Made by a program: the position numbers and the translations under genes
Part shown: one piece after another, positions 1 through 62,473 of the stretch
Layout: the number at the start of each line of letters is the position of its first letter
Numbering within the stretch: position 1 is the stretch's first letter
Notes under the pieces: model-generated
Told to the model about the DNA's origin: nothing
Databases searched by the model: none
What the model saw: the letters and a program-made list of their open reading frames with translations, nothing else
Source of the DNA: Escherichia phage AnYang
DNA: 64,000 bases
Sequence record: MK234886
Strand: one strand, 5' to 3'

Positions 1-130
1 CGAACATCTGTGCTTTAAAATTATTCCATGAACCTTGGTCGGCAATGAAATCCCAATCAGAATTTTCGATATACTTACTTTCAATCAGACCAGCATGGTG
101 CAGTGCACGAGAACCAATAACTAACATCAT
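1..130 (-). CDS. hypothetical protein, 5' part only (3' end lies beyond window start)
   Basis: ATG at 128-130 (minus) with GAGGAAA RBS upstream; reading frame MMLVIGSRALHHAGLIESKY... stays open to position 1. Confidence 0.4.
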   Translation of the reverse strand, partial: MMLVIGSRALHHAGLIESKYIENSDWDFIADQGSWNNFKAQMF

Positions 131-149
131 AATATTTTCCTCAGTAAAC

Positions 150-389
150 TTAAATTTCGGCAACATAAGTATTATGCAATTCCCACATATCATCGGAATT
201 ACTCTCAACGATAGGAATTATCTCATTAGAGATTTCTTCTGCATAAGGGTCATTGATACAATGGGCATCTTCAAAACGAACACCGTAATCAGACTTCTTA
301 TAAGCAAAGCCATAAATCTTTTTAAACTTGGCACGAGTAATGCGTACCGGTTCATTAGACTTATCGGACATCGGAGCGTAATACCACAT
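150..389 (-). CDS. hypothetical small protein (79 aa)
   Basis: ORF track; GAGGAG RBS 5 nt upstream of ATG; early promoter-like element immediately upstream. Confidence 0.55.
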   Translation of the reverse strand: MWYYAPMSDKSNEPVRITRAKFKKIYGFAYKKSDYGVRFEDAHCINDPYAEEISNEIIPIVESNSDDMWELHNTYVAEI

Positions 390-416
390 ATGTTCTCCTC
401 ATGTTTGTGTAGGGTA

Positions 417-445
417 ATAGTAACACGTATTTTTAGAGTTGTACA
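417..445 (-). promoter_or_regulatory. sigma70-type early promoter (TGTACA-N17-TACTAT, TG-extended) on minus strand
   Basis: hexamers read on minus strand; -10/leader/RBS module near-identical to the one at 56099-56158. Confidence 0.45.
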
Positions 446-762
446 TCACTTCTGCAATATTCTAAAAATAATTTATCGTTGTCTACCGTATCCCAACGAC
501 GCCAAGATGGATTCCAGACCAGAGCGTTGTCACCACAATCATTGAGCTTAAAATGGTCGTAGTACATAGCTATACGTTTAGTCTCGTCGCCAGAGAACCC
601 CAGTATAGGCTCACCGTGGGTATGATACATATGATGGTGCATTGAGAGGTCGCATTTGTAAAACATCTCACGTTTACCACGAACGAACAAGAAGGCTTGC
701 CCATTCATATAGAATTCTTTATCTGTTTTCAAAAGATATTTGAATACTGAATCTTTATGCAT
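433..762 (-). CDS. hypothetical His-rich protein (SMHHHMYHTHGEP); ORF track start 783, start 762 preferred
   Basis: internal ATG at 762 has AGGAGG RBS with 4-5 nt spacer; ATG at 783 has weaker signal. Confidence 0.5.
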   Translation of the reverse strand: MHKDSVFKYLLKTDKEFYMNGQAFLFVRGKREMFYKCDLSMHHHMYHTHGEPILGFSGDETKRIAMYYDHFKLNDCGDNALVWNPSWRRWDTVDNDKLFLEYCRSDVQL

Positions 763-792
763 AAGTCCTCCTATCACATCCATGTGGTTAAA

Positions 793-1020
793 TTATTTTC
801 CTAACGAAACACGAGTAGGTTTTTTACCAAAATAGTCCTCATAAGAACCATCTAAACGACCCGCTTTAGACCGACAATATGAATCGTACTTTTTGTAATA
901 AGTCATCTCAGTATTATAACGTGGGTGTCTATCAGCCATAATAATACTTAGTGGCCAACCTTTGGCATAATCGCGAAGACCATTTATTTTACGAATGTAT
1001 CGTTTTTTCAATTTTAGCAT
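793..1020 (-). CDS. hypothetical basic protein (75 aa)
   Basis: ORF track; start ATG overlaps last codon and stop of upstream paralog E (ATGCTAA), translational coupling. Confidence 0.5.
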   Translation of the reverse strand: MLKLKKRYIRKINGLRDYAKGWPLSIIMADRHPRYNTEMTYYKKYDSYCRSKAGRLDGSYEDYFGKKPTRVSLGK

Positions 1021-1238
1021 GAGCTTGGGTACCAGATTTTACCATCGGAACGAGCAACGAAGGTGCGACCAGCTTCTTCACCATAACAAGAGCTATTCAG
1101 CCAATCTTCGAGACGAACTTCACCGTCATAATCATCGAGCTCAACGCCAAAATCCTGAGCAGAAGCCATATCTTTTACTTTCTTATACAGTGCAGCCAGT
1201 TCAAGTGCAGCTTTTTCTAATTCATTAATATCAGTCAT
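1014..1238 (-). CDS. small acidic protein, paralog E of C-terminal W-x-S-S-Cys family (74 aa; also internal WLNSSC)
   Basis: internal ATG at 1238 with GGTGA RBS overlapping stop of paralog D; ends ...GKIWYPSSC. Confidence 0.6.
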   Translation of the reverse strand: MTDINELEKAALELAALYKKVKDMASAQDFGVELDDYDGEVRLEDWLNSSCYGEEAGRTFVARSDGKIWYPSSC

Positions 1239-1248
1239 TTTTATCACC

Positions 1249-1458
1249 TTAGCAAGACATAGAGGAGCTAAACCAGAAACCTTCACCTTCTGGAATACCG
1301 TAATCATCACGGGCCCATTCGTAATCATCATATTCCGGACTAGAAGCTGGAATATATTCTTCGCCACCAGCGTGGAAGTGTTGACCTGTTTCGTCAGCCA
1401 CGGACTGGCCTTTACGTACTAATTCACGGATTTGTTTTTCAATTTCATCAATAGTCAT
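1249..1458 (-). CDS. small acidic protein, paralog D (69 aa), ends GFWFSSSMSC
   Basis: ORF track; AAGGAAA RBS overlapping stop codon of paralog C. Confidence 0.6.
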   Translation of the reverse strand: MTIDEIEKQIRELVRKGQSVADETGQHFHAGGEEYIPASSPEYDDYEWARDDYGIPEGEGFWFSSSMSC

Positions 1459-1467
1459 TTTATTTCC

Positions 1468-1665
1468 TTAGCATTCGTAAGAGGAGGACACCCAAGAGGT
1501 ACCACTAATAGTAATACAACCGTTATAAAGCGTGATATGTCGTTCTAGGTCACGAACACCATCGATATAGATATCAGCTTCTTCGCGTTCTTCTTTACAA
1601 ATCTGGATAACGTTTTCAATAGCTGCGGCTGCAGTACGGATTGCACAATCTAGTTCACGAGACAT
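1468..1665 (-). CDS. small acidic protein, paralog C (65 aa), ends TSWVSSSYEC
   Basis: ORF track; AAGGAA RBS overlapping stop codon of paralog B. Confidence 0.6.
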   Translation of the reverse strand: MSRELDCAIRTAAAAIENVIQICKEEREEADIYIDGVRDLERHITLYNGCITISGTSWVSSSYEC

Positions 1666-1674
1666 AATAATTCC

Positions 1675-1956
1675 TTAACATTCAGAAGAAGAGGACACCC
1701 ATCCACCATTTTCTAGGCTGGTGGTGTAATCATGTTGGTTTACAATAGCGTACTGAGCTTCACCGTATTCTTCCCAGTGGGCAAGGTCGGCTTTCAGGGC
1801 GCCAGGAGAATAATAGTCACCGCCCATACCGCGAGCAGGGTATATATTAAAATGAGTCTCATATTTGTTAGCAATTTCCTCAGCACGACGAATAGCTTTA
1901 TGAATATCATTTACTGCTTCAGCCAGCTCTTTATTTTTACGGTAATCATTCATCAT
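1675..1956 (-). CDS. small acidic protein, paralog B (93 aa), ends GGWVSSSSEC
   Basis: ORF track; AAGGAAA RBS overlapping stop codon of paralog A; shares KYG/GDY core with paralog A. Confidence 0.6.
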   Translation of the reverse strand: MMNDYRKNKELAEAVNDIHKAIRRAEEIANKYETHFNIYPARGMGGDYYSPGALKADLAHWEEYGEAQYAIVNQHDYTTSLENGGWVSSSSEC

Positions 1957-1965
1957 AGCGTTTCC

Positions 1966-2256
1966 TTAGCACATTGCCGAAGAGGAGACCCAAGCACCGA
2001 CTGTAACGACACCGTTTTCAACTTCACCGCCATTGTTTTCAATTTCATCTTTAAACCACTGGGAGCATTCATAACCGACAGGATAATATGTACGGCCTGA
2101 ACCATAATCACCTGTACCGAATTGGATACCATACTTATCGGCAATAGCTTCACATTCATGTTCGATGGTATTCACTTTATTCAGAAGAGCATAGATAGCC
2201 TTTTCTGCAGATTTCTCATCATTGTGTTCTGGGATTTCAATTTCAATTTTATTCAT
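1966..2256 (-). CDS. small acidic protein, paralog A (96 aa), ends GAWVSSSAMC
   Basis: ORF track; ATGA start/stop overlap with upstream membrane protein gene. Confidence 0.6.
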   Translation of the reverse strand: MNKIEIEIPEHNDEKSAEKAIYALLNKVNTIEHECEAIADKYGIQFGTGDYGSGRTYYPVGYECSQWFKDEIENNGGEVENGVVTVGAWVSSSAMC

Positions 2257-2606
2257 GATTTACATTCCTTAATAAAGGTTTCAAGGTCATTACGATTGGT
2301 TTGTTTTACATACTCATTATAATTAGCCATCGATACAGCATATCTCTTACGGATGGGAGCATTCAAAGCATTTGTATGGCAAATATCATACACTACAGGG
2401 ATAAAATAAGCCACGACAGCCGGAGCGATTATCATATAGAAACCCATCTCAATAGGTGTGACTCCTTCGATTACAGCCATAACCACGGTCATTACCAGGC
2501 CAATTAGGCCGCCAAGCATGGCTGTAACAATCCCTAATAATAAATTGGCACCAATATCATATTCAGCCAATTGATAAACATGTGATGAAAGACTAGGCCG
2601 CTCCAT
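2253..2606 (-). CDS. small membrane protein, two predicted TM helices (117 aa; ORF track start 2780, internal ATG 2606 preferred)
   Basis: hydrophobic stretches GANLLLGIVTAMLGGLIGLVMTVVMAV and GFYMIIAPAVVAYFIPVV; AGAGG RBS before ATG 2606. Confidence 0.45.
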   Translation of the reverse strand: MERPSLSSHVYQLAEYDIGANLLLGIVTAMLGGLIGLVMTVVMAVIEGVTPIEMGFYMIIAPAVVAYFIPVVYDICHTNALNAPIRKRYAVSMANYNEYVKQTNRNDLETFIKECKS

Positions 2607-3135
2607 TTTGAACCTCTTTAGCGTATTCGCGACATTCAGCAATAAAACGATTAAGCTTCCGTTGTTGTTTTCGAATCTCTGATGTATACTCATTAGCCAA
2701 AATAATAAGCTCATCTTTATCGTAATTTTTAATATCCGAATAACTCGGGCGGCGGTCGACCATACCAAAGTGGTCACCATTTTCTAACATCAAATAGCAT
2801 ACTAAATGGTAATCATCGTCAGCATCAACAAGCTGTTTACAATCACTTGGTTCATTTAAAGCGTATACTGAATAGCATAATCCAGCGAATTCCACTCGTT
2901 GAATACCTAGATTTAAGTCAATAATTTCTAAAGCTTCTGCAAAAGAAAGGTCCTCAGCTAAAGCAAAGATAAAAGGTAATTTGCTAGTGTATCCACGGCT
3001 ATTTGTTCGACTTAAGAAATCATTGGAATAACCTAAGTCTTGGCGAATTCTATAAAGAACTGAATTAGTTTCATGGGAAAGACCACTATGCTTAAACCAG
3101 TCAATATTTGATATCAGGTCGTCATATAAACTCAT
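2593..3135 (-). CDS. hypothetical protein (180 aa)
   Basis: ORF track; GGAGAGGAG RBS upstream of ATG. Confidence 0.5.
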   Translation of the reverse strand: MSLYDDLISNIDWFKHSGLSHETNSVLYRIRQDLGYSNDFLSRTNSRGYTSKLPFIFALAEDLSFAEALEIIDLNLGIQRVEFAGLCYSVYALNEPSDCKQLVDADDDYHLVCYLMLENGDHFGMVDRRPSYSDIKNYDKDELIILANEYTSEIRKQQRKLNRFIAECREYAKEVQNGAA

Positions 3136-3158
3136 AATATTCTCCTCTCCTCCAAATA

Positions 3159-3176
3159 GGGAGACCGAAGTCTCCC
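3159..3176 (-). terminator. stem-loop GGGAGAC-UUCG-GUCUCCC (minus strand)
   Basis: perfect 7-bp inverted repeat with UUCG tetraloop directly downstream of 3184-3777 gene; same hairpin at 4674-4689 and 41242-41259. Confidence 0.5.
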
Positions 3177-3183
3177 AGTAACA

Positions 3184-3777
3184 TTACTTAAGTGAATTAA
3201 TGTAGTCGTCGATATCGGCAGAAGTCGTATCCATTCCAACTTGTGGGCCTTTAAACGTTTCTACACGCAGCAGGGTATCTTCAATATCAATCTTAGTCAG
3301 TGCAGCGATTTCAACAACATCATCGGCAGTAGCAATACCAAGGGCAGCCATATTGCGAGTTTCACGGATGTACTCGAGCTTAACGGCCAGTTCCTGACGA
3401 GAGTCATCAAGTTCCTTGACCTTCAGTTTAATTTCATTACGCATTTCGATATAATCATCGGCCTTCTTACGAAGCTGAGTAGCTGTACGACGATAAAGGA
3501 GGCCAAGTTTAGCATGTACCTGGACATCAGCACCTTCGGCAATCAGTTTACGAATTTCACGTTCTTTAGAAGCGGCAAGCTGGTCTTTTTCATTAGCCAA
3601 CGCACGAATACGTTTTTCTTCATTCACAGACTTAACATGAGCGGTCTGGAGTTCAGTAATTTTATCAATCAGGGTAGAAGCAGCTTTGGTGTATTGGTCT
3701 TCGATTGACAGGTTCTGAGCCATTGCAGTACCCAGTTTAGAACGGATGAATTCAACGATTTTCTTTAAAGTGTTCAT
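3184..3777 (-). CDS. hypothetical coiled-coil protein (197 aa)
   Basis: ORF track; AAGGAAA RBS; heptad-rich charged sequence. Confidence 0.55.
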
Positions 3778-3819
3778 AGTATTTCCTTCAGTTGATTAAG
3801 ATTTATAATCCATGAGGAC

Positions 3820-3848
3820 ATTATACCCTGTCCTCTGAGGTTTGTAAA
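3820..3848 (-). promoter_or_regulatory. sigma70-type early promoter TTTACA-N17-TATAAT with overlapping stem-loop GAGGACA...TGTCCTC
   Basis: hexamers and inverted repeat read on minus strand upstream of 3184-3777 gene. Confidence 0.5.
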
Positions 3849-3852
3849 TATT

Positions 3853-4251
3853 TTATTTCATTTTTGCGAGGCAAATTTCATTGGCTTCCCATTGAGCTTG
3901 CTTAATAATAGCTTTGGATACAGGAACCCTTTGGCCATAAGTTTTTGACGTTGAGAGAACAATATGTTTGTTTGCTTCATTATGCCAGCCCCATGATTTT
4001 TCGCCATGAGTACCTTTAACTACAGCTGACACCTCAACAGAGCAACCACCATCAGAAATCTTGGTTTCGACAATCCATTCATTTCTTTCGACGGCTTCAA
4101 GTTCTAATCTAGTTTTTTCTTCATACATAGCGGCCCAATCAGTTTTTGCCAAGTTGAAAGTAAGAGCTTTCTCCAATTCTTTGGCAGCTTTTTGTTGTTC
4201 AGGCGTTAATGAATTATACAACTCTTGCATTTCTTTATCTTCGATATTCAT
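3853..4251 (-). CDS. hypothetical protein (132 aa)
   Basis: ORF track; GAGGAG RBS. Confidence 0.5.
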   Translation of the reverse strand: MNIEDKEMQELYNSLTPEQQKAAKELEKALTFNLAKTDWAAMYEEKTRLELEAVERNEWIVETKISDGGCSVEVSAVVKGTHGEKSWGWHNEANKHIVLSTSKTYGQRVPVSKAIIKQAQWEANEICLAKMK

Positions 4252-4276
4252 TATGTTCTCCTCAAATTACGGGCTC

Positions 4277-4306
4277 ATAATATCTTAATCATGAGCCCGT
4301 GTAAAC
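4277..4306 (-). promoter_or_regulatory. early promoter GTTTACA-N17-TATTAT with stem-loop CGGGCTCAT...ATGAGCCCG
   Basis: read on minus strand upstream of 3853-4251 gene. Confidence 0.45.
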
Positions 4307-4308
4307 AA

Positions 4309-4572
4309 TTATTTCATATTATTGAAATAATCTTCCGCATCAAAATCGTTATCATGATAAACTTTGGTAGACAATTTAGCATAACCTTCAGCTGAGAACA
4401 TATTAATCACAACCTTAATTGTATACCATTGTCCATCATCATTACCCATTACTGCGTAAGTTTCAAATATAGGATGGTCATCACCTATAACCTTAATATC
4501 GTTAACAGTAGCACCAAATTCTTCAGGAACGCATTTCATAAAGAAATTAAACAATTCACCATAATTATCCAT
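4309..4572 (-). CDS. hypothetical protein (87 aa; ORF track start 4587 is GTG, ATG at 4572 preferred)
   Basis: AAGGAGAG RBS upstream of ATG 4572. Confidence 0.5.
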   Translation of the reverse strand: MDNYGELFNFFMKCVPEEFGATVNDIKVIGDDHPIFETYAVMGNDDGQWYTIKVVINMFSAEGYAKLSTKVYHDNDFDAEDYFNNMK

Positions 4573-4607
4573 TTTACTCTCCTTCACTCTGTTGTTTTGA
4601 TAGGTCT

Positions 4608-4636
4608 ATAGTATCATGTTTAAAGGAGGTGTAAAC
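4608..4636 (-). promoter_or_regulatory. early promoter GTTTAC-N17-TACTAT (TG-extended)
   Basis: read on minus strand; member of repeated TGATACTATAGRCCTATCAAAAC module. Confidence 0.5.
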
Positions 4637-4673
4637 AACTTTGTGAAATTATTTTTAGTCTAACCCCCAAAAA

Positions 4674-4689
4674 GGAGACCGAAGTCTCC
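4674..4689 (-). terminator. rho-independent terminator GGAGAC-UUCG-GUCUCC + U-run (minus strand)
   Basis: hairpin followed by TTTTTGGGGG on minus strand, downstream of 4695-5303 gene. Confidence 0.55.
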
Positions 4690-4694
4690 TTTCA

Positions 4695-5303
4695 TTATTT
4701 ACGAGTCTTTTCGAACTGGGCTGCGTCACCTGCAAGGCGGCCGGCTTGGCGAAGTTTGTTATTGATTTCTTCGCGCATAGGCTGGGTATACTTAAGGCCT
4801 TCAACCGTCAGATAGAGACGATACAGGTCTGGGGTATCCAGGTTGTTAATGTGTTGACCATTACGAAGAGCGTTGAATTCACGAACAAGGTGTTTAGTTT
4901 CAGATTCGATTTCAGAAACTAAAGAAGCCAGTTGGTTATATTTTTTAACTATAGTGCTGGTGTCAAACTTGATTTTAGGTTTAGGAGCTTCTTTTACAGG
5001 TTCTGGTTTAGGCGTCGGTTTCGGTGTTGCAACTTTGGGCTGAGCCGCAGGTTTAGCAACAGGAGCTTTAGTAGGTTTAGTAGCGCCACCAGCTACGATA
5101 TCTTTAAAAGCTTTGGAAGCTTTGTAATATTCTTTCTGGTTACTGGTGTCGAGCCCATACATATCATAGACGTTTTTAAAGAATTCGGTGGTGGTTTTAG
5201 TCCCAGAAATTTTATCATAAGCTGCTTGCCACATATCTTTAGTCATGCGAACGCCGGCTTCACTCAGAATGCTTTCGTTCAAAAATTCATTGTAAGTTTT
5301 CAT
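4695..5303 (-). CDS. internal-protein-like (IPIII-like) packaged protein with N-terminal capsid-targeting-type leader MKTYNEFLNES and Lys/Pro-rich centre
   Basis: leader resembles T4 IP CTS MKTYQEFIAE; late promoter TATAAATA upstream; 202 aa. Confidence 0.55.
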   Translation of the reverse strand: MKTYNEFLNESILSEAGVRMTKDMWQAAYDKISGTKTTTEFFKNVYDMYGLDTSNQKEYYKASKAFKDIVAGGATKPTKAPVAKPAAQPKVATPKPTPKPEPVKEAPKPKIKFDTSTIVKKYNQLASLVSEIESETKHLVREFNALRNGQHINNLDTPDLYRLYLTVEGLKYTQPMREEINNKLRQAGRLAGDAAQFEKTRK

Positions 5304-5331
5304 TGGTATTTCCTAAGTTAATTAACTTATC

Positions 5332-5339
5332 TATTTATA
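5332..5339 (-). promoter_or_regulatory. T4-type late promoter TATAAATA (minus strand)
   Basis: exact TATAAATA about 30 nt upstream of ATG 5303, leader AACTTAGGAAATA. Confidence 0.55.
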
Positions 5340-5345
5340 CAAAAA

Positions 5346-5365
5346 GCCCAACCTTTCGGAAGGGC
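5346..5365 (-). terminator. hairpin GCCCUUCCGAAAGGUUGGGC + U-run (minus strand)
   Basis: inverted repeat followed by TTTTTG on minus strand, downstream of 5372-5926 gene. Confidence 0.5.
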
Positions 5366-5371
5366 TGTAAA

Positions 5372-5926
5372 TCAGTTCTTATAGAATCGGAACGGGTTTA
5401 CGTGGAAGGCTAACATAGCCTTAGGGATTTTACGAGACAAAAGACTCTTAAGTTTCCAACCACAGTACACGCGAAGGTAAAAGGTAATACCTCCAACCTT
5501 AAGATAAGGAACCGAAGCAAAAACTCCCCATGCGTCATCATTCCACATCCATAGCCACCCGTGATGAGCTTTATCAGGGGAACCTGATTCCACATCAGGA
5601 TTACCGCGATAATGGAATTCTGAGCTACAATCACGTCCGAGTTTATGGTAAGCAAAGTTATAAGCTTTATTTCGCCATAGCCAAGCTACTCTCTGGAGAT
5701 AAACGCCAAAAGGTAGTTTTCTGATTTTAGCCCAACGTTTAATGTGACCTTTATCACCGTCAATTGGATTATCGTATGTCATCATCCAATCAAAGCCATA
5801 TGGTAATTTACCGGTCTTTTTATTGTGGAAAGGGACTACAAAAGGTGCAAGGATAACAGCCAGAACCATAGAGATAAAATCTAGAGGGACCAACAGAACC
5901 CAACTCAAATATTTTAAAAGTTTCAT
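5372..5926 (-). CDS. hypothetical membrane-anchored Trp-rich protein (184 aa), late-expressed
   Basis: N-terminal hydrophobic helix WVLLVPLDFISMVLAVILAPFVV; TATAAATA late promoter and AGGAAA RBS upstream. Confidence 0.55.
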   Translation of the reverse strand: MKLLKYLSWVLLVPLDFISMVLAVILAPFVVPFHNKKTGKLPYGFDWMMTYDNPIDGDKGHIKRWAKIRKLPFGVYLQRVAWLWRNKAYNFAYHKLGRDCSSEFHYRGNPDVESGSPDKAHHGWLWMWNDDAWGVFASVPYLKVGGITFYLRVYCGWKLKSLLSRKIPKAMLAFHVNPFRFYKN

Positions 5927-5952
5927 ATTATTTCCTAAGTTAGTTTACTACA

Positions 5953-5960
5953 TATTTATA
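5953..5960 (-). promoter_or_regulatory. T4-type late promoter TATAAATA (minus strand)
   Basis: exact TATAAATA about 27 nt upstream of ATG 5926. Confidence 0.55.
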
Positions 5961-5967
5961 CAAAAAA

Positions 5968-5989
5968 GGCCCGACCTTTCGGAAGGGCC
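5968..5989 (-). terminator. hairpin GGCCCUUCCGAAAGGUCGGGCC + U-run (minus strand)
   Basis: inverted repeat followed by TTTTTTG; third copy of same element at 47703-47725. Confidence 0.5.
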
Positions 5990-5995
5990 TTTAAC

Positions 5996-6225
5996 CTAGG
6001 GTAACCTTGTCGGGGTTCCACCTGCTAGGCAAGTGTTCGGTGCGCCGTTTCAGCTGTGATATAAGGGACTTTAAGAGGAACTCATGTACGCCTTAAAGTC
6101 GGGTCTTATTCAGGGAACTTCAGTCCGACGACTTACCGGTAGCGACCCGGTTTCTTGTTTGTTGCGCCGGTGAATGCTGGTAATCAGTCTTCATACGACG
6201 GCTTGACTATATAATAGTCTTCATT
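5996..6225 (-). ncRNA. candidate small stable RNA(s) adjacent to tRNA-Arg (positional analogue of T4 RNA C/D)
   Basis: 230 nt with no ORF over 25 codons and no RBS, between tRNA-Arg and a terminator; no canonical tRNA T-loop found. Confidence 0.25.
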
Positions 6226-6300
6226 TGGTATCCCGCCCTGGGATCGAACCAGGACCGCAAACTTAGAAGGATCGTATGCTATCCATTACACCAGCGGGAC
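6226..6300 (-). tRNA. tRNA-Arg (anticodon UCU), CCA encoded
   Basis: 75 nt cloverleaf read on minus strand: 7-bp acceptor stem, T-arm CCUGG-UUCGAUC-CCAGG, anticodon loop CUUCUAA. Confidence 0.85.
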
Positions 6301-6305
6301 GTAAT

Positions 6306-6971
6306 TCAAAATTTTATTTTACGGCCTTTATTCCAACCTTCAGGAATAATATCCGTTTTGTTAATACGTTTAGAAACTTTTTCTTCTAAAGAATGAATCC
6401 ACATTTTTCCATATCCGGAATTATTTTCACCTTGTTGGTGTTTATTTCTGGCGTGAGATTCTTTCATTTTATTTTTGGTTTCATCTGAATGGGTCTTACC
6501 CAAGAAAGATTTAGTATTTGAAAATTTCTCTCTATACTTAGGATTATCCCAAAGTTGTTTAAACCTTTCTGAACCCATTTTACGATATTTTTCTTTAAGG
6601 TCTGGGTCGTTCTCAAATCTGGTTTTAAAAGCGGCAACTCCTTTTAAGGAAGCTTCTTTCTTTTTATCTAAATATTCTTCAGTGTTTAAATGGTCCCAAC
6701 CACCTTCACCGCCTAATTTCAAATTATAAACATCGGGGCGCTTTAAAAACTCTTCAGTCACAATATTCTTTTCTGACTCAAACATAGAGATTTTATCGTC
6801 AAAGAACTCTAATATTTCTTTAGAGAAATTTTCTATACCGTATTTGGCCTGGGCCCTTTTCAAGAGTTTACCGGAACCAAAATATGCATCATTCAAATTT
6901 TCGGTTGAATGGGCTCCTATATAGATTTTATTATTAATTTTGTTTGTTATTTTATAAGTGTAATGGAACAT
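6306..6971 (-). CDS. segB: GIY-YIG homing endonuclease, SegB-like (221 aa)
   Basis: N-terminal YTYKITNKINNKIYIGA motif; sits between two tRNA genes as segB does in T4; AGGAGA RBS. Confidence 0.75.
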   Translation of the reverse strand: MFHYTYKITNKINNKIYIGAHSTENLNDAYFGSGKLLKRAQAKYGIENFSKEILEFFDDKISMFESEKNIVTEEFLKRPDVYNLKLGGEGGWDHLNTEEYLDKKKEASLKGVAAFKTRFENDPDLKEKYRKMGSERFKQLWDNPKYREKFSNTKSFLGKTHSDETKNKMKESHARNKHQQGENNSGYGKMWIHSLEEKVSKRINKTDIIPEGWNKGRKIKF

Positions 6972-7012
6972 AAATATCTCCTATTTCTAAGAGTATTTAT
7001 GTTCTCAAAATA

Positions 7013-7083
7013 TGGCCCTGGGTGGAATCGAACCACCATCCAGCGATTATGAGTCGCTCGCTTGACCGTCCAGCTACAGGGCC
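7013..7083 (-). tRNA. tRNA with CAU anticodon (Ile2/Met type), CCA not encoded
   Basis: cloverleaf on minus strand: acceptor GGCCCUG/CAGGGCC, anticodon stem-loop GCGA-CUCAUAA-UCGC, T-arm GGUGG-UUCGAUU-CCACC. Confidence 0.8.
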
Positions 7084-7088
7084 TTAAT

Positions 7089-7355
7089 TTAAATTACAAA
7101 TCCAGCAGGAGCATTATCATCTTTAGCCATGTGCTGAATTGTATGATAAGTCATTTCTTCAGGAGCAACCAGATAAGCCGCAGCGTTAACTAGTGGAATT
7201 ATTTTTGGTTTAGCGAATGTGCTATCGGCAATTGCCATAAAGGGCTCGCCGTCGGTCTCAACTTCACCAAATTGGCATTCATATGAAATAGAACAACGTT
7301 TGGTAGTTGTTGTCTTGGTTTCCGGGTCATAAAAAGCTAATTTTAATACTAACAT
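7089..7355 (-). CDS. hypothetical protein (88 aa; ORF track start 7361 is GTG)
   Basis: ATG 7355 preceded by GAGGTG RBS. Confidence 0.45.
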   Translation of the reverse strand: MLVLKLAFYDPETKTTTTKRCSISYECQFGEVETDGEPFMAIADSTFAKPKIIPLVNAAAYLVAPEEMTYHTIQHMAKDDNAPAGFVI

Positions 7356-7393
7356 AAACACCTCAAATAAAATTAAGTAAAGTAAGTTTGATT

Positions 7394-7439
7394 AATAGAC
7401 CTTGTCTATTATGAAAGGTTCTTTGAGGGAAGAACCTTT
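7394..7439. other. two adjacent hairpins (AATAGAC-ctt-GTCTATT and AAAGGTTC-N10-GAACCTTT)
   Basis: inverted repeats in the 130-nt spacer between two minus-strand genes. Confidence 0.35.
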
Positions 7440-7484
7440 GGTAATAGAGGGTATTAATGATAGAGTAATAATATCACATAATTC

Positions 7485-7769
7485 TTAAAGCATATTAATG
7501 TAATCAAGTTTAATAGAAGCAATCTTCAAAGGATTTTTAAAGATGTCATATTCGACCAATCCATTTTCAGTTGCGGTATAAAAAGTAAAGTTAACAGAAT
7601 TATAACGATGGCTGTTAACTTTGAGTTTAACATCGCTTGAACTACGGCCAATATTAACCTGTTGAACATCAAGCACAGCATCTTTGCCATAATTGCGAAT
7701 CAACAACTCAGCTGCAACCTGGTCTGAATTATAGCCATTCTCTGGATTAGTAACCTTAACGTATAGCAT
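7485..7769 (-). CDS. hypothetical protein (94 aa)
   Basis: ORF track; ATG immediately follows stop of upstream gene (TAAATG). Confidence 0.5.
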   Translation of the reverse strand: MLYVKVTNPENGYNSDQVAAELLIRNYGKDAVLDVQQVNIGRSSSDVKLKVNSHRYNSVNFTFYTATENGLVEYDIFKNPLKIASIKLDYINML

Positions 7770-8171
7770 TTAACCCTCGTCTACAATGGTGTGGGTGTTG
7801 GCATTAACAATTTGCCACCAGTCAAAACGATTAGACCCATAAAGAGGCTTATTCTCGTTTTCTTTAATAATATCACGCAGTTCATCTTCAGAGAATGCTT
7901 TAGCGATTAAATCAGTATATCCACCACGTGGATAATAGTTGTCACCCGCGAACAAAAGGAAATTTACCTTTCCAGAAGGAATATATGCTTCCTTAGGATA
8001 CTTGTTTCCTGCATGGTCTAACACTTCAATATAACGATAAGGGATATCAGTACTTTCAACCCATTGCCAAGCCGCAGCAGGAGAGTCAAAAGCATCTACA
8101 CCTAAACGGTTATCTTCATCTTTAGACGGATTATTTTCATAATCCGCATATACATAATATTCAACGTTCAT
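7770..8171 (-). CDS. hypothetical protein (133 aa)
   Basis: ORF track; AAAGGTGA RBS; TAATG overlap with upstream gene. Confidence 0.5.
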   Translation of the reverse strand: MNVEYYVYADYENNPSKDEDNRLGVDAFDSPAAAWQWVESTDIPYRYIEVLDHAGNKYPKEAYIPSGKVNFLLFAGDNYYPRGGYTDLIAKAFSEDELRDIIKENENKPLYGSNRFDWWQIVNANTHTIVDEG

Positions 8172-8356
8172 TATTCACCTTTAGAGATTTTATCCATAAC
8201 AAAAGAGATTGAACCAATTAAAAATGCCACTACTAAAGAGATTATATTCTCGGAAGTTGAAAGCATATCGAGCATGAATCCTGCAAACATACTAAAGCCA
8301 AAAGCAGTAACGGCGGCCAGTGCAGTAACATTTCTAATTAATTCGCAACGTTTCAT
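8171..8356 (-). CDS. small hydrophobic membrane protein (61 aa; ORF track start 8368 is TTG)
   Basis: ATG 8356 with GGAGA RBS; two hydrophobic segments. Confidence 0.45.
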   Translation of the reverse strand: MKRCELIRNVTALAAVTAFGFSMFAGFMLDMLSTSENIISLVVAFLIGSISFVMDKISKGE

Positions 8357-8392
8357 TTTATTCTCCAATCACTCATTTGTTTTGATAGGGCT

Positions 8393-8421
8393 ATAGTATC
8401 ACCACTAGAGCCCGTTGTAAA
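8393..8421 (-). promoter_or_regulatory. early promoter TTTACA-N17-TACTAT with stem-loop
   Basis: read on minus strand upstream of 8171-8356 gene. Confidence 0.5.
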
Positions 8422-8424
8422 CAA

Positions 8425-8697
8425 TTATTTTAGATAAATTGCATACTTTTTATAACCAGCCGTTTCGTGACGCAGTCCTTTTTCATTAGCAAAACGTTCA
8501 ATATTGTTAATTTGATTCTGGTCAAGTTCTGAAGTATCAAAAACAAAAAAGTTTCGCTTATTGCCTAAAGTTACATGATTAGTCAAATCAATGTTATAGA
8601 GATGATTTATATTATCAATCATGGTCTTAACAGATTTGTTAATTTTTACTTCTTCATTAAGAACAGATTCAGCGATAAATTCTTGATAAGTTTTCAT
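8425..8697 (-). CDS. internal-protein-like small protein with capsid-targeting leader MKTYQEFIAES (90 aa)
   Basis: N-terminus matches T4 IP capsid-targeting consensus MKTYQEFIAE; sits next to 57B as ipI does in T4. Confidence 0.55.
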   Translation of the reverse strand: MKTYQEFIAESVLNEEVKINKSVKTMIDNINHLYNIDLTNHVTLGNKRNFFVFDTSELDQNQINNIERFANEKGLRHETAGYKKYAIYLK

Positions 8698-8698
8698 T

Positions 8699-8920
8699 TT
8701 ATTCTACGCCAGCGGCTTTCAAAAGTTTTTTAAGATTGGCGGTGCCTTGAGCAGAAAATGTGACCTTGCCGCCTTTTTCGCTGATGCTCCCAGTCAATTT
8801 AGCAAGTTTATCACTAGAGACTTTTTTAAAATCAGCCAATGTACCGTCAAAGGTTTTTGTAACAACCGGCAGTTGGTCATGTTTTTTAGCTTCTGTAATA
8901 AATTCTTGATAAGCTTTCAT
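8699..8920 (-). CDS. internal-protein-like small protein with leader MKAYQEFITEA (73 aa)
   Basis: CTS-like N-terminus; GGAAA RBS; tightly coupled to downstream IP-like ORF. Confidence 0.55.
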   Translation of the reverse strand: MKAYQEFITEAKKHDQLPVVTKTFDGTLADFKKVSSDKLAKLTGSISEKGGKVTFSAQGTANLKKLLKAAGVE

Positions 8921-8957
8921 TTTGATTTCCGTTTGGTTAGTTTGTTTTGATAGGTCT

Positions 8958-8986
8958 ATAGTATCACGCCTATAGACCTTGTAAAC
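8958..8986 (-). promoter_or_regulatory. early promoter GTTTAC-N17-TACTAT with perfect 10-bp stem-loop AGGTCTATAG...CTATAGACCT
   Basis: read on minus strand upstream of IP-like genes. Confidence 0.55.
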
Positions 8987-8998
8987 ACCTTTTTTAAA

Positions 8999-9676
<678 letters not shown>

Positions 9677-9684
<8 letters not shown>

Positions 9685-10438
9685 TTTTATTTCCTAATAA
9701 TTTATCAATAGTAGTGTATAGTTCAGAAAGAGTGCCGTTATTTTCAACAACAACGTCACCAGGTAAAATTGGTAGACCCGCTTCAGTGATGTGCGAGTCT
9801 TGTACTTGACCGGTTTCAGAGCGAACTACATGAATAATCGTAGCACCCATCGCTCTGAGCGAATCAATTTCGTGTGTTTGACGAACATCAGGTACGACAT
9901 AGTATTTCGCATCAGAGTATATTTTATCAAAATAGTCTAAAGCGAACAACTTAACCCAATACATCTTATCAAATTGGTTAACAATAATATCAGTCCCAAG
10001 GGTCTGCATGAGACGACGTACTGACCAATTGTTATTTTTATTTATTACTTCAAACAGTTGGTCTTTTGTTTCTTCAGACAGATACTGGACTGGGGTAAGA
10101 CCATAATGATATGCGGTACGAACGTCCATTCCTGGAATAGGAAGGATATTATTCAGTTTGACAATAGCATTTTCAAAGATATCAACCACATCATATGGTT
10201 TTAAAGGAAGGATTTCTTCACGGTCGTAACCGATACCTTCAAAACAGTTGAAATCCAGTTTAGGCATATAACTACGGTCGAATACAGGGTCATCAGAGAT
10301 GTATTCATAGGCTTCAGCCAGATACTTTTTAATAGGACCTGCGAGCTGAAATTTTACCGAATCCATATTTTCGATTACATAGTTAGCAACGGTATCCTTA
10401 CCGCTACGTTTGATTCCTACAATTGATATTAGTTTCAT
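9677..10438 (-). CDS. 1: gp1 deoxynucleoside monophosphate kinase
   Basis: P-loop GIKRSGKDT at N-terminus; 253 aa; synteny. Confidence 0.85.
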
Positions 10439-11028
10439 TATTTTCTCATAGATGGATGCATAGACATACGAGCCACACGTTGTTCGGCATACGAATCAAT
10501 TTGTGGACGACCTGTAACTATTGTACCATCTATTTCTACAGCAAACGATTTGAAGTTGAATGTTGCTGTAGCGATTATCGCAGGGTCAGAATCTTCTTTA
10601 TACGAATACTGGATTTCCGAGAGGTCGGATGGCCAACCACCGTAGTAATGAATGCTCATTACTATTTTCTGTTTGTTATTATCAAGGATATGGAGGGTAA
10701 TTGCTTCAGGTAAGCCTTTAGGATGCCAAGCTTCGGATTCGTGGGTTACATAGTTGTTTAATGACAACATCCACTTATAAACGTCAAGCCATGATTTCAA
10801 TTCACGGTCCACAAGAAAGTTCACAATCAATGGGTCGAATTCTACTGTAGAACCTGGCAGCTTAGCACGATGTATGCCCTGGGTCGATCCTGGGACGTCT
10901 GAGATCGGAATATGGATACCAGGTAGTGTTACATCTTGTACGTTCAATTTGAATGACTGTGTCATTCCTGAGTCACTAACCTCTAAGATAAAGTTGGTGG
11001 TGTTAGTTTGGTTAAATAAACCGTTCAT
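10438..11028 (-). CDS. 3: gp3 tail completion / sheath stabiliser
   Basis: synteny 1-3-2-4; AGGAA RBS; TAATG overlap with gene 1. Confidence 0.65.
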   Translation of the reverse strand: MNGLFNQTNTTNFILEVSDSGMTQSFKLNVQDVTLPGIHIPISDVPGSTQGIHRAKLPGSTVEFDPLIVNFLVDRELKSWLDVYKWMLSLNNYVTHESEAWHPKGLPEAITLHILDNNKQKIVMSIHYYGGWPSDLSEIQYSYKEDSDPAIIATATFNFKSFAVEIDGTIVTGRPQIDSYAEQRVARMSMHPSMRK

Positions 11029-11041
11029 AGGATTCCTATAT

Positions 11042-11067
11042 TGCTTAAATCCCGGACAGGGTATAAT
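11042..11067 (+). promoter_or_regulatory. promoter-like element on plus strand (TGCTTAA MotA-box-like, 13-nt spacer, TATAAT) antisense to genes 2 and 3
   Basis: core GGACAGGGTATAATG is the same as in the minus-strand promoter at 3820-3835 but in opposite orientation. Confidence 0.3.
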
Positions 11068-11110
11068 GGTCCTAGGTCTGTTCCATTCAATAACTGGCCG
11101 GGATAATAGA

Positions 11111-11947
11111 TTATGAATTCTTCCATACTTTCTGAGCTGAGTAACGCTTGCCTTTAGACATGAACTGTTGGAGAGGCATCATGACCACATTAGCCCAATC
11201 AGCAGGTTTTATCTCTACTAAAGGTCCTTTAATATTTCCTGGGATATAGGCCTTAATCATAACGTCTGCGCCAGCGAATCCTTTTACCTTACTCCAATCG
11301 ATTTTTAATTTAGTCGAGTTGGTAATGGTAGGTGTACTCGCGTATTGCTTCAGCAATTCTTCTAGAAATTGTTGGCGTGCTTTAGGCGGGATATAGTGTA
11401 GGTTCAGCCCATACATTAAATTATGCTTACCTAACCCAAGATAAATGATTAAAGGATATTTGTCCCAGTATGGCAGGGTATCCTTGTGTTTAGCGTCATA
11501 GATATAAGCATAAAGCTTACCGGGTTGTGGTTTAGATACCTGGTGTCCACGAATTCCTTTCTTTAATGTTTCTGTAAACCATTTAGCTGATTTATTGTTT
11601 ACAGCAGCGCCTTCGTTAGCAATCTTATCACGAATACTCTTTCTAAAACTATTCACCAAAATTAATTGACGTTCGGCTTTGGTTAATTTATTGCCAGGTT
11701 TCTTCTGAAGTTTTTCAACCTGTACAGCAGTTTTAATTCGACTCGAGTATCGAGACATCGCAGATGTAAAGCTAGAATACTTAATGCCTTTATCTTCAGC
11801 GAATTTCTTAGCCGAGACACCTTTAGCCTTAGCTTTGGCATATTCAACACCTAAAGCTATCCATTGTTGTTCTGAACGGGTAGGCTTAGAACCTTTTGTG
11901 GTTTCAGTAGCCTCATTGATGTAGGAAAATATACTCATCCTTTCCAT
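11111..11947 (-). CDS. 2: gp2 DNA end-protector protein
   Basis: 278 aa, synteny. Confidence 0.65.
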
Positions 11948-12384
11948 CCTAATTTTTTCAGTGAATGTTCGGTAATCAATCTAAAGGTGATACCCATTTT
12001 ATCTGCAGTAGCTTTAGCTGCTTTCCACTTATCGGTATTAACAGACCAAGTATAGTGTTCGTTGATATATCTCTTTTTAGCAGCCGTAGTCATTTTAACA
12101 GGCACCGCAGGAGCATGGGTTTCTTTAAAAGGTTTGACTTCAAAAAAGAATTGTTGGCCTGTATCAAATTTAACCCAGAAGTCCATAAAATATCGTCTTT
12201 TCTTTCCTTCGGCATTGCAAAAGTATGGGATAACCACCTCTTCTGAATTCCACTGGACTACATTAGGATGGTTGTCAAGCCAACGCATAAACCATGCTTC
12301 CCAAGAGGAACGATATTGGATTTTCTTCCAGTCACCTTTATATTTTTGTAAGTTTGTAGGTTTAAATTTCCCTGAGTAAGCCAT
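11935..12384 (-). CDS. 4: gp4 head completion protein (150 aa; ORF track start 12456, ATG 12384 preferred)
   Basis: GGAGG RBS upstream of ATG 12384; late promoter at 12411-12418; 150 aa as in T4. Confidence 0.7.
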
Positions 12385-12395
12385 AGTTGCCTCCT

Positions 12396-12403
12396 TATAA
12401 ATA
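12396..12403 (+). promoter_or_regulatory. late promoter TATAAATA for gene 53
   Basis: exact TATAAATA about 28 nt upstream of ATG 12431. Confidence 0.6.
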
Positions 12404-12410
12404 TTAATAT

Positions 12411-12418
12411 TATTTATA
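12411..12418 (-). promoter_or_regulatory. late promoter TATAAATA (minus strand) for gene 4
   Basis: reverse complement TATTTATA on plus strand, 27 nt from ATG 12384. Confidence 0.55.
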
Positions 12419-12430
12419 CTCGGAGGCCCT

Positions 12431-13033
12431 ATGCTCTTCTCATTTTTCGATCCCATCGATTACGAATCAAAAACAGTCAAGCCAGATTCGGGCTCATTAA
12501 CAAATGCCGATGTACTGAGCGTGCCGATGACTGATATATTTAGAAATTATAAAGAATATTTTGATAAAGTGGCTAAAAACTATACACTAAAGACTTATTA
12601 TATCAACGGGGCCCCTCGTCCGGAAGAATTGGCCAATCAACTTTATGGTAACGTTCAGTTATACTGGGTTTTATTGATGTGTAACAATATCTATGACCCT
12701 TATTATGGTTGGATTACAGGTCAAGAAGCAGCCTACCAAGCGGCAATCCAAAGATATTCTACTGCAGGCGGTAATCAAGTTCTTTATCACGTTAATGAAA
12801 AGGGTGAGAAATTCTGGAATCTTGTTAATACTCCAGAAAACCCGTATACTTGGTATGATAAAGGCGATACAGAAAAACGTTATCCTCAATATGAGGGCCC
12901 TTTGGCTGCAGTAGATATTTATGAGGATGCTATTCGTAAAAATGAATATAAGCGCGAAATAAAGATTGTAGACCCTAATGATATTGAGTCCTTTATTTCT
13001 GCCCTTATTCGCGAAATGGAGAAAGCCCTCTAA
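12431..13033 (+). CDS. 53: gp53 baseplate wedge protein
   Basis: 200 aa; divergent from gene 4, directly upstream of gene 5. Confidence 0.7.
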   Translation: MLFSFFDPIDYESKTVKPDSGSLTNADVLSVPMTDIFRNYKEYFDKVAKNYTLKTYYINGAPRPEELANQLYGNVQLYWVLLMCNNIYDPYYGWITGQEAAYQAAIQRYSTAGGNQVLYHVNEKGEKFWNLVNTPENPYTWYDKGDTEKRYPQYEGPLAAVDIYEDAIRKNEYKREIKIVDPNDIESFISALIREMEKAL

Positions 13034-14775
13034 TGATTAACATGTCTGATAATGTAAGTTGGTTCGTCGGTGTAGTTGAAGACCGAATGGACCCGCTCAA
13101 ACAAGGCCGAGTACGCGTACGTGTATGGGGTATGCATCCCTATGAAAAAGTTCAAGGCCCTGTAAAAGGCCTTCGTACAGAAGATTTACCATGGATGTCG
13201 GTATTAATGCCTACATCTTCTGCCTCTGTTTCTGGTATACAAACCGCCATGACTGGTATGGTCCCGGGTACACAAGTTTATGGTCACTTTCTTGATAAGT
13301 GGAAATTAAACGGACTTGTCCTTGGTACATACGGTTCTGCTTCAAAACAAAAAGCGAATCCTAATGAAGGTTTTAGTGACCCAACAGGCCAATATCCACT
13401 TTATTTAGGTAACGATGCTGCTGCACTAAACCGAGGTGGTGAAGTTGGATATGATGCAACTTCTAACGTAATACAGGATGCAAACACCGATGTAGGTATT
13501 AATCCTGATGGTTTAGATTTAAGTCAAGTCAAGCCTGACGATAATCCTAATTTCACAATAGAAAACATGCTTCATCGTGATGAGGGTCTTCGTCTTAAAG
13601 TATATTGGGACACTGAAGGATATCCTACTATAGGTATAGGTCACCTTATTACGCCACAACCTATTAGAGATATGAACCAGATAAACAAAATATTATCTAA
13701 TCAGGTAGGACGGGAAGTTAAAGGTAACCCTGGTGCAATATCAATGGACGAGGCTTCTAAATTATTTCAAGAAGACCTTAAAAAAGTCCAAAACGATATA
13801 GGCAGGCATAGTGTTGTAGGTCCTGTTTACAATAAAGAAAACCGTTCAAGACAAATGGCTCTTGAAAACATGGCTTTCCAAATGGGATTAGGTGGATTGG
13901 CTAAATTCCGTGGAATGCTTAGTGCAATGTTAATAGGCGATTATAAAAAGGCATTTGAAGAAGCTCGTAATTCAGTGTGGTTTAACCAAACTAAAGGACG
14001 TGCATCAAGGGTATCAATGATTATCCTTACAGGTAATATGGAATCATACGGTATTATGGCCCCTAAAGAAAGGTCATTTAAAGGGCGTTCGTATAGAATG
14101 ATTCAAACCTTTGCGGCCCCTACAAATTCTGACCCGGCCGATCCGTGGACCCCAGAAGACACAAGGATTCTTTTTAAAGAACCTGATTCTAGTTATAAAG
14201 GTGAGTACCCATATGTCCAAACCATGCAAACTGAAGGTGGACACGTCCAAGAATTTGATAACACCCCAGGGCAAGAACGTTATCGTTTAATCCATCCAAC
14301 CGGTAGTTATGAAGAAGTTGCTCCTGATGGTCGCAAAACTTCTAAGACGGTAGCCGATGGGTATTATATGACCCAAGGCGATTCTAATACTTATGTTGGT
14401 GGTAATAATAAAGTCAACATAGGTGGTGATGAAACCTATTATAATATGGCAAACGTGCGCCGTCAAACTGATGGGTCTGAAAGCATCCATATTCGTGGTA
14501 ATGAAACCAAAACGGTAGAAGGTGACGGAACCCTTATTGTTAAAGGGAACGTTACGGTTATTGTTGAAGGCAATGCAGATATAACTGTTAAAGGTGATGC
14601 AAAAACACTAGTTGAAGGCAATCACGACTATACCGTAAATGGAAACGTTAAATGGTCTGTAAACGGAAACGTTGATATGACTGTTGCCGGTAATTGGTCT
14701 GAAACTATGTCAACCATGAGTTCTATCGCATCAGGTCAATATACTATTGATGGTTCGAGGATTGACATTGGCTAA
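13033..14775 (+). CDS. 5: gp5 baseplate central spike with tail lysozyme domain
   Basis: T4-lysozyme-like segment EGLRLKVYWDTEGYPTIGIGHL; C-terminal VxGxxxxx beta-helix repeats (IVKGNVTVIVEGNADITVKGDAKTLVEGN); 580 aa. Confidence 0.95.
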   Translation: MINMSDNVSWFVGVVEDRMDPLKQGRVRVRVWGMHPYEKVQGPVKGLRTEDLPWMSVLMPTSSASVSGIQTAMTGMVPGTQVYGHFLDKWKLNGLVLGTYGSASKQKANPNEGFSDPTGQYPLYLGNDAAALNRGGEVGYDATSNVIQDANTDVGINPDGLDLSQVKPDDNPNFTIENMLHRDEGLRLKVYWDTEGYPTIGIGHLITPQPIRDMNQINKILSNQVGREVKGNPGAISMDEASKLFQEDLKKVQNDIGRHSVVGPVYNKENRSRQMALENMAFQMGLGGLAKFRGMLSAMLIGDYKKAFEEARNSVWFNQTKGRASRVSMIILTGNMESYGIMAPKERSFKGRSYRMIQTFAAPTNSDPADPWTPEDTRILFKEPDSSYKGEYPYVQTMQTEGGHVQEFDNTPGQERYRLIHPTGSYEEVAPDGRKTSKTVADGYYMTQGDSNTYVGGNNKVNIGGDETYYNMANVRRQTDGSESIHIRGNETKTVEGDGTLIVKGNVTVIVEGNADITVKGDAKTLVEGNHDYTVNGNVKWSVNGNVDMTVAGNWSETMSTMSSIASGQYTIDGSRIDIG

Positions 14776-14809
14776 TATTTTACCTATGAGCACAGATTTA
14801 GGAGACTCC

Positions 14810-15600: not shown

Positions 15601-15608
15601 GAATTAAA

Positions 15609-28169: not shown

Positions 28170-28174
28170 TAAAA

Positions 28175-28186
28175 GGGCTTCGGCCC
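28175..28186 (+). terminator. rho-independent terminator GGGC-UUCG-GCCC + U7
   Basis: hairpin with UUCG tetraloop followed by TTTTTTT after wac. Confidence 0.6.
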
Positions 28187-28195
28187 TTTTTTTGC

Positions 28196-35846: not shown

Positions 35847-35894
35847 GAATTATCAAGGAGCTTCGGCTCCTTATCCCATTCATCGGAGACTCTA

Positions 35895-41225: not shown

Positions 41226-41241
41226 GATATAACCTTATTAT

Positions 41242-41259
41242 GGGAGACTTCGGTCTCCC
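41242..41259 (+). terminator. rho-independent terminator GGGAGAC-UUCG-GUCUCCC after gene 23
   Basis: perfect hairpin with UUCG loop followed by T-rich tract. Confidence 0.6.
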
Positions 41260-41274
41260 ATTCTTGTTTCTGTA

Positions 41275-62419: not shown

Positions 62420-62457
62420 AATAATTCCTCTTTAATAACCTTATTTATGCCAGAAAA

Positions 62458-62469
62458 GGCCCGAAGGCC
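62458..62469 (-). terminator. hairpin GGCC-UUCG-GGCC + U-run (minus strand); CATAAATA late-promoter-like box at 62442-62449
   Basis: read on minus strand between small ORF and alt. Confidence 0.5.
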
Positions 62470-62473
62470 TTTA

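Follow-up and report, generated by a model that had tools for sequence, protein, structure and literature searches.

Sense-strand UUCG hairpins between genes of Escherichia phage AnYang, a T4-type phage of the JS98 group

The DNA analyzed here, referred to below as the window, is a stretch of 64,000 nucleotides from Escherichia phage AnYang (sequence record MK234886). It belongs to a T4-type phage of the JS98 group (Dhakavirus-like), is 91-99% identical to IME281, C6 and JS98, and has a gene order colinear with that of JS98 (about 64 to 128 kb). Six hairpins with C(UUCG)G caps and stems of at least 7 bp are present in the window (Table 1), compared with 0.05 expected from Markov-1 shuffles. 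All six have the UUCG loop and the C-G closing pair, all are located between genes, and in each case (6/6) UUCG appears in the sense strand of the genes on either side. CUUCGG hairpins were reportedly described by Tuerk and coworkers from the intercistronic regions of T4 (Tuerk et al. 1988, PNAS 85:1364).

Table 1. UUCG hairpins of the window and the early promoter next to one of them
Position	Strand	Feature	Location	Basis
3159..3176	-	intercistronic hairpin GGGAGAC-UUCG-GUCUCCC	between e.6 and next early gene	
4594..4635	-	T4-type early promoter TTTACA-16 nt-TACTAT, extended TG, with conserved leader GATACTATAGACCTATCAAAAC		
4671..4692	-	putative terminator hairpin AAAGGAGAC-UUCG-GUCUCCUUU(UU)	3' of orf135-like gene, before e.8	
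28171..28190	+	hairpin AAAAGGGC-UUCG-GCCCUUUU+UUU	one nucleotide past wac stop	
35855..35872	+	hairpin AAGGAGC-UUCG-GCUCCUU	between genes 19 and 20	
41240..41261	+	hairpin AUGGGAGAC-UUCG-GUCUCCCAU, then UCUUGUUUCUG	gene 23 (major capsid protein)	predicted fold, relatives
62455..62472	-	hairpin AAAGGCC-UUCG-GGCCUUU+UCUGG	between alt.1 and alt	

An earlier note on this DNA had reported one and the same GGGAGAC hairpin at three loci. Exact searching of the window returns the 18-mer GGGAGACTTCGGTCTCCC twice, at 3159-3176 (minus strand) and 41242-41259 (plus strand), while the third locus carries a copy with two mismatches, AGGAGAC..GTCTCCT, at 4673-4690 (minus strand); dinucleotide-preserving shuffles gave 0 matches to the 18-mer. 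The stems are longer than had been thought, extending over 9 bp both at 4671-4692 and at 41240-41261. Three further UUCG hairpins regarded as related are indeed real, but again longer than described, with stems of 8 bp at 28171-28190, 7 bp at 35855-35872 and 7 bp at 62455-62472. One copy does lie behind gene 23, whose ORF spans 39666-41225, and the copies do occur on both strands of the DNA, with the qualification that every one of them presents UUCG on the sense strand of the local genes. A seventh CTTCGG match, at 52869-52880, was taken as a chance occurrence because its stem has no more than 4 bp and it is antisense to the coding region around it.

Energy calculation gives predicted free energies of -9.7 to -14.7 kcal/mol (-12.0 kcal/mol at 3159 and -14.7 kcal/mol at 41240). 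MFE z-scores in 55-nt windows were -3.5 at 41240, -2.7 at 4671, -0.9 at 62455 and -0.3 at 3159, and are uninformative at several sites because short G/C-complementary contexts fold well even when shuffled. The significance of the hairpins is carried only by the census and the comparative data. In a search of the window with Rfam at gathering thresholds, two tRNAs were the only matches and none fell at the hairpins. A terminator scan of positions 1-20000 left the minus-strand hairpins at 3159 and 4671 unflagged and picked up 4671 only when read on the plus strand, since its U tract is taken into the stem; the tail at 4671 consists of U5, partly within the stem.

The census was extended to the whole JS98 genome, which was assembled from five pieces before the hairpins were counted. 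Counting stems of 7 bp or more, it contains 13 C(UUCG)G hairpins where 0.2 are expected; with the limit set at 5 bp there are 20, all of them in the sense orientation when checked against the annotation (20/20). UUCG is by far the most frequent tetraloop in JS98: of the 91 hairpins per strand that have stems of 6 bp or more, 18 carry it. The over-representation of UUCG hairpins thus holds against chance in the window and against other loops in JS98. The CTTCGG hexamer is itself 2.2-fold in excess across the window (44 copies against 19.8 expected), mostly within coding regions and outside hairpins.

The hairpin behind gene 23 offers the broadest comparison. It starts 14 nt 3' of the gene 23 stop, 6 of the 8 nt behind it are T, and a small ORF on the minus strand (41275-41556) converges on it. 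We retrieved 78 T4-type loci via the C-terminus of gp23, each of which, as listed, shows a strong hairpin with a U-rich tail close behind the gene, and scored the first 100 nt past the stop in 77 of them; a strong hairpin with a U-rich tail was found in 76. The best hairpin has a mean energy of -15.2 kcal/mol, as compared with -5.9 kcal/mol in coding-region controls, the strongest of which reached -11.4 kcal/mol. This energy comparison was the basis of judgment, covariation on a loop-anchored alignment being circular, since such an alignment is fitted to the structure. The sequence at this site varies widely: 37 distinct loop-centred 22-mers occur among the 71 loci with a tetraloop hairpin, and the loops include UUCG, GCAA, GAAA, UACG and others. 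Examples are GGGAGAC-UUCG, GGGAACC-UUCG, GGGAGCC-GCAA, GGGAGAGC-GAAA and UACG-loop variants, and T4 itself has AGGGAACC-UUCG-GGUUCCCU followed by UUUUU. Further downstream, the window has a single gene 24 (41644-42924) where JS98 has two tandem copies.

A similar picture is seen at the e.6 site. The hairpin at 3159 lies 7 nt 3' of the e.6 stop and 5 nt 5' of the Shine-Dalgarno sequence (SD) GGAGGAGAGGAG of the next gene, whose ATG is at 3135. A hairpin is kept at this place in 13 relatives and in T4, 5-8 nt upstream of the SD of the next gene, with the stems GGGAGAC, GGGGGC (with a UUU or AAA loop), AAGAGGGC and GGGGCC, and AGGGGC in T4. Since the stems vary between lineages, it is the structure and the position that are conserved at this site, and not the stem sequence. 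The tail is weak (UAUUUGG), and with no more than UAUUU after the stem, termination may fail here altogether; two of the three GGGAGAC-type sites are unequal in the quality of their tails. A switch to alternate pairing of the 3' arm with the downstream SD seems unlikely, as the UUCG hairpin is the dominant structure of the predicted ensemble and leaves the SD unpaired. The SD just downstream of the hairpin also contains a RegB-like site (GGAGAAUAUUA). T4 has intergenic stem-loops with GGAG in them, often closed by UUCG loops, that resist RegB and among which are terminators (PMC1702504). Given the resemblance of the SD to a RegB site and the resistance of the T4 stem-loops, one may speculate that the 3159 hairpin could preserve the 3' end of e.6 mRNA after cleavage by RegB.

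At three other sites the hairpins are found close to late promoters or, at alt, to a late-promoter-like sequence. The hairpin behind wac has a tail of U7, followed by the late promoter TATAAATA (28196-28203) and the start of gene 13 at 28225. The hairpin between alt.1 and alt, which is also present in JS98, has the tail U4CU and is followed by the late-promoter-like CATAAATA, an SD and the alt start codon at 62419. Between genes 19 and 20 the order differs: the late promoter TATAAATA (35839-35846) comes first, the hairpin follows 8 nt downstream, and its tail is weak (UUAUCCC). If transcription starts where the promoter position suggests, the late mRNA of gene 20 would begin about 3 nt before this hairpin. 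The T4 site between genes 19 and 20 has the reverse order, with the hairpin preceding the promoter. T4 has hairpins at all 5 orthologous sites examined, two with UUCG and three with GNRA loops.

Units made of a hairpin and a following late promoter were observed at 21687-21719 (+), 28171-28203 (+) and 62440-62472 (-), with TATAAATA 5-8 nt after the hairpin, replaced by CATAAATA in the unit at alt. Leader and SD resemble each other at 28171 and 62455 (ggttattagaggaa and ggttattaaagaggaa). Such a unit is a late-promoter analogue of the early-promoter/stem-loop cassettes known as PeSLs, one of which is described below. Hairpins of another kind, with A-tracts and T-tracts and with GNRA or other loops (GUGA/UCAC, GCAA, AUAC/GUAU), are located at 42928-42949, 44370-44387 and 55780-55803; those at 42928 (gene 24/rnlB) and 55780 (gene 54/alt.-3) lie between convergent genes and look like bidirectional terminators. 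The wac ORF of the window (26556-28169) is much shorter than that of JS98, at most 537 aa versus 751 aa.

The earlier note had taken the reuse of an identical stem as a sign of a selected RNA element. In this form the argument is not supported by comparison with other genomes: orthologous sites use other stems and loops, as described above, and the 18-mer occurs in many unrelated genomes. It was found in at least 120 IMG/VR contigs, where its flanks are mostly unrelated, and in at least 120 bacterial genome stretches, which come from many phyla. A T-run nearly always follows: of the 8 nt after the 18-mer, 6.1 on average are T in the viral contigs, read on the UUCG strand, and 5.7 in the bacterial stretches. 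Purine-rich stems of other sequence are about equally common. In IMG/VR, GGGAGAC-UUCG is found at at least 120 loci, and the permuted purine arms GGAGGAC-UUCG and GAGGGAC-UUCG are found at 108 and at least 120 loci, respectively, while the same stem with a GAAA loop (GGGAGAC-GAAA) occurs at 88 loci. With the arms swapped (GTCTCCC-UUCG-GGGAGAC) there are 5 loci, which makes this version at least 24 times rarer than GGGAGAC-UUCG. These controls indicate that the favoured feature is a class of hairpins in which a 5' arm rich in purines and a 3' arm rich in pyrimidines are capped by C(UUCG)G or a GNRA loop, the 3' arm leading into a U tract. GGGAGAC itself is not favoured over its permutations.

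The same data bear on two other explanations. In the first, the exact GGGAGAC/GUCUCCC would be read by a phage or host factor, serving as a decoy or protected GGAG for RegB/S1 or as a mimic of a ribosome-binding site. The GGAG in the 5' arm is both the RegB target and the commonest Shine-Dalgarno sequence of T4, JS98 encodes regB, GGAG-containing stem-loops of T4 resist the enzyme, and a RegB-like site lies downstream of the 3159 hairpin, where protection of the e.6 3' end was conjectured above. Nevertheless, orthologous sites use the GGAG-less stems GGGGGC, GGGGCC, AGGGGC and GGGAACC, the permuted stems are about as common across phages, and the 18-mer serves as an apparent terminator in bacteria of many phyla, where the phage-specific RegB is not expected. 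Recognition of the exact stem is therefore very unlikely. The second explanation places the element in the DNA, as a protein-binding site, a cruciform or the remnant of a mobile-element end, and can point to the fact that these are inverted repeats in DNA located near recombination joints. We regard it as extremely improbable: UUCG is in the sense orientation in all 20 JS98 hairpins and the T-runs are on one side only, swapping the arms makes the sequence rare, pairing is kept while the stem sequence turns over, and the copies come without shared flanks, target-site duplications or an associated transposase. A remnant of a MITE or other mobile element was likewise rejected, as the copies have no common flanks. 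The strict strand polarity thus favours an RNA element over a DNA palindrome.

Reuse of stems is not peculiar to GGGAGAC, another point against reading identity as a mark of selection. In JS98, the stems GGAGGC and AAGGAGC are used twice each, and stems of the types A(n)GGCC and A(n)GGGC recur at differing lengths. A 20-nt hairpin, AAGGAACC-UUCG-GGUUCCUU, occurs three times on both DNA strands of JS98, at 14428(-), 155757(+) and 164317(-); one copy is found behind soc, one behind gene 35 and one in the motA-52 region, and two of them have the tail UUUUCGUUUU in common. One identical pair among the six window hairpins (15 pairs) is unremarkable. Within JS98, 6.4% of hairpin pairs have identical 7-nt arms, compared with 1.4% among unrelated phage contigs (43 non-seed hairpins) and 0.024% for random stems; the samples of hairpins are small. 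The three identical stems are best described as drawn from a limited repertoire of stems suited to terminators, with short-patch copying as a possible contribution. The repertoire alone may be an incomplete explanation, since the roughly four-fold excess of identical arms within the genome leaves room for some copying.

The hairpin at 4671 is the site where copying can be considered most concretely. Here a stem-loop, a conserved A/T-rich spacer, a TTTACA/TACTAT early promoter, an SD and the ATG of e.8 follow one another; the promoter at 4594-4635 is predicted to drive e.8 and is the promoter half of a PeSL-type cassette, of which the 4671 hairpin is the stem-loop half. The consensus for PST/T4 PeSLs is TTTACW-N17-TAYWAT (Comeau 2014, PMC4122927), and the promoter fits it except for its spacer, which is 16 nt rather than N17. 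The stem is unlike the published PST/T4 consensus, AGNA-loop-TCNT (PMC4122927). JS98 has the same hairpin at this site except for a UUUG loop. Three relatives carry the same promoter joined to another upstream gene, whose terminator hairpin is also another one, and in a fourth the cassette is directly upstream of e.6. The site lies in the hyperplastic e-region, in which relatives show breakpoints and cassette transposition, and the association with replacements between close relatives that is typical of PeSLs is present at 4671. Among the three GGGAGAC-type hairpins, the PeSL architecture is found only here, and is absent at 3159 and 41240. In RB49/phi1, a PeSL stem-loop cut lacZ expression about as much as rrnB T1 did (Arbiol 2010, PMC2839356), and recombination between PeSLs, which shuffles genes, was shown experimentally (PMC2839356). 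RB49/phi1 is the only case cited here with experimental evidence such as recombination mini-circles or measured activity of promoter and terminator (PMC2839356).

Several other features of the early promoters were noted. The 22-nt early-promoter -10/leader cassette GATACTATAGACCTATCAAAAC is present at 4594-4615, 8379-8400, 8944-8965 and 41557-41578, all on the minus strand, with 0-1 mismatch and 0 copies expected by chance; the copy at 41557 is immediately upstream of the small ORF 41275-41556. Strong stem-loops of up to 13 bp and -20.7 kcal/mol are located within early-type promoters (TTTACA...TATTAT, TATAAT or TACTAT) at 4269-4300, 3814-3835 and 8952-8979, all on the minus strand, where they overlap the spacer or the -10 box. 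A stem-loop inside the early promoter is the arrangement described for RB49-type PeSLs. Finally, an ORF at 6306-6971 (minus strand, 221 aa) has a GIY-YIG domain and a weak NUMOD3 match, as in a seg-like homing endonuclease. It lies between tRNA-Arg (6226-6300) and tRNA-Met (7013-7083), where JS98 has three contiguous tRNAs (Arg, Asn, Met) and no such ORF, and the arrangement resembles that of segB in the T4 tRNA cluster.

Could the three GGGAGAC-type copies be related by descent, the hairpins or cassettes having been moved or homogenized by short-patch recombination of the PeSL type? The 4671 hairpin and its promoter act as a cassette in different gene contexts, and PeSL recombination has been demonstrated in RB49/phi1 (PMC2839356). 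At the e.6 site the hairpin was swapped wholesale (about 30 nt) between phages with 94% identical e.6 proteins, the flanks being conserved. Together with the excess of identical arms within JS98 and the four copies of the 22-nt early-promoter/leader cassette, one of them beside the gene 23 hairpin, these observations are consistent with common descent rather than convergence. However, the three copies have no similarity beyond the stem, the same 18-mer is found in unrelated phages and bacteria, and the copies at 3159 and 41240 have no adjacent early promoter in the same orientation. The gene 23 copy is old, since phages with no more than 87-92% identity to the window in the C-terminal segment of gp23 also have it. 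The e.6 copy is restricted to the JS98 subgroup, and the stems at the e.6 and gene 23 sites differ from each other in four other lineages. Overall, copying of the three hairpins is possible but doubtful. A stronger version, in which terminator stems are actively homogenized and hairpin-templated short-patch recombination copies a preferred stem (GGGAGAC, or AAGGAACC, which occurs three times in JS98) between unlinked early and late units, seems distinctly unlikely.

The reading that we prefer is that the sense-strand C(UUCG)G hairpins very probably are factor-independent terminators or attenuators and nuclease-resistant transcript ends, for which the exact stem is not needed. The strand polarity, the conserved positions with turnover of the stem, the U tails and the shuffling of the cassette are observed; termination and stabilization in phage AnYang are what we infer from the sequence. 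As to the earlier guess of a terminator or 3'-end stabilizer, polarity, mostly U-rich tails, positional conservation and the T-runs after the 18-mer elsewhere all argue for it. A literature search found no Term-seq study of T4. An RNase III processing site was rejected on general grounds, as stems of 7-9 bp are too short.

In the proposed mechanism, the nascent RNA would fold into a very stable hairpin whose arms, G/A-rich on the 5' side and C/U-rich on the 3' side, are joined by a UUCG loop on a C-G closing pair. A G+C-rich hairpin with a U-rich tract is found at 4 of the 6 sites (28171, 41240, 4671 and 62455), and there the host RNA polymerase would release the transcript at the U tract, the hairpin probably also giving the transcript a stable 3' end. 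These four resemble Rho-independent terminators, as does the occurrence of the identical 18-mer with a T-run in many bacterial and phage genomes. The hairpins at 3159 and 35855 differ from such terminators in that they lack a proper U tract, and may only attenuate transcription or stabilize RNA; more likely they would act by attenuation or as a block to 3'-to-5' exonucleases, leaving a stable 3' end for the upstream cistron. Hairpins of the ompA type at the 5' end are known as mRNA stabilizers. The T4 gene 32 leader is also described as a 5' stem-loop stabilizer (via PMC8948821). The hairpin at 35855 would be alike if the transcript starts at TATAAATA (35839-35846), a start suggested by the promoter, and could alternatively cap the 5' end of the downstream gene 20 late mRNA. 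The hairpin at 4671 is half of a terminator/early-promoter cassette (PeSL), which would in addition serve as a recombination joint.

Hairpins of this kind are already known. CUUCGG hairpins are reported to be frequent between the genes of T4 and to stop reverse transcriptase (Tuerk 1988, via PMC8948821). They agree with those of the window in the loop, the closing pair, the intergenic location on the sense strand and the phage family, and T4 has UUCG at the orthologous e.6 and gene 23 sites, as does the window. The stems are different (AGGGAACC and AGGGGC in T4 versus GGGAGAC in the window), and the T4 sites at wac-13 and 19-20 have GNRA loops instead of UUCG. After these T4 hairpins, ordinary intrinsic terminators and PeSL cassettes come closest. 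The GGGAGAC hairpin is an ordinary member of the C(UUCG)G stem-loops of T4-type phages and many bacteria.

It follows for similar analyses that identical short hairpins at several loci of a phage do not point to a special element; the features favoured are the C(UUCG)G cap and arms of set polarity, with purines on the 5' and pyrimidines on the 3' side. If the homogenization of stems considered above were true, PeSL-like exchange would reach even the terminators of core late genes such as gene 23. For annotation, the hairpins would mark the boundaries of transcription units after gene 23, wac, gene 19, alt.1, e.6 and the orf135-like gene, and the one at 4671 also points to a terminator/promoter cassette located at a recombination joint of the hyperplastic e-region.
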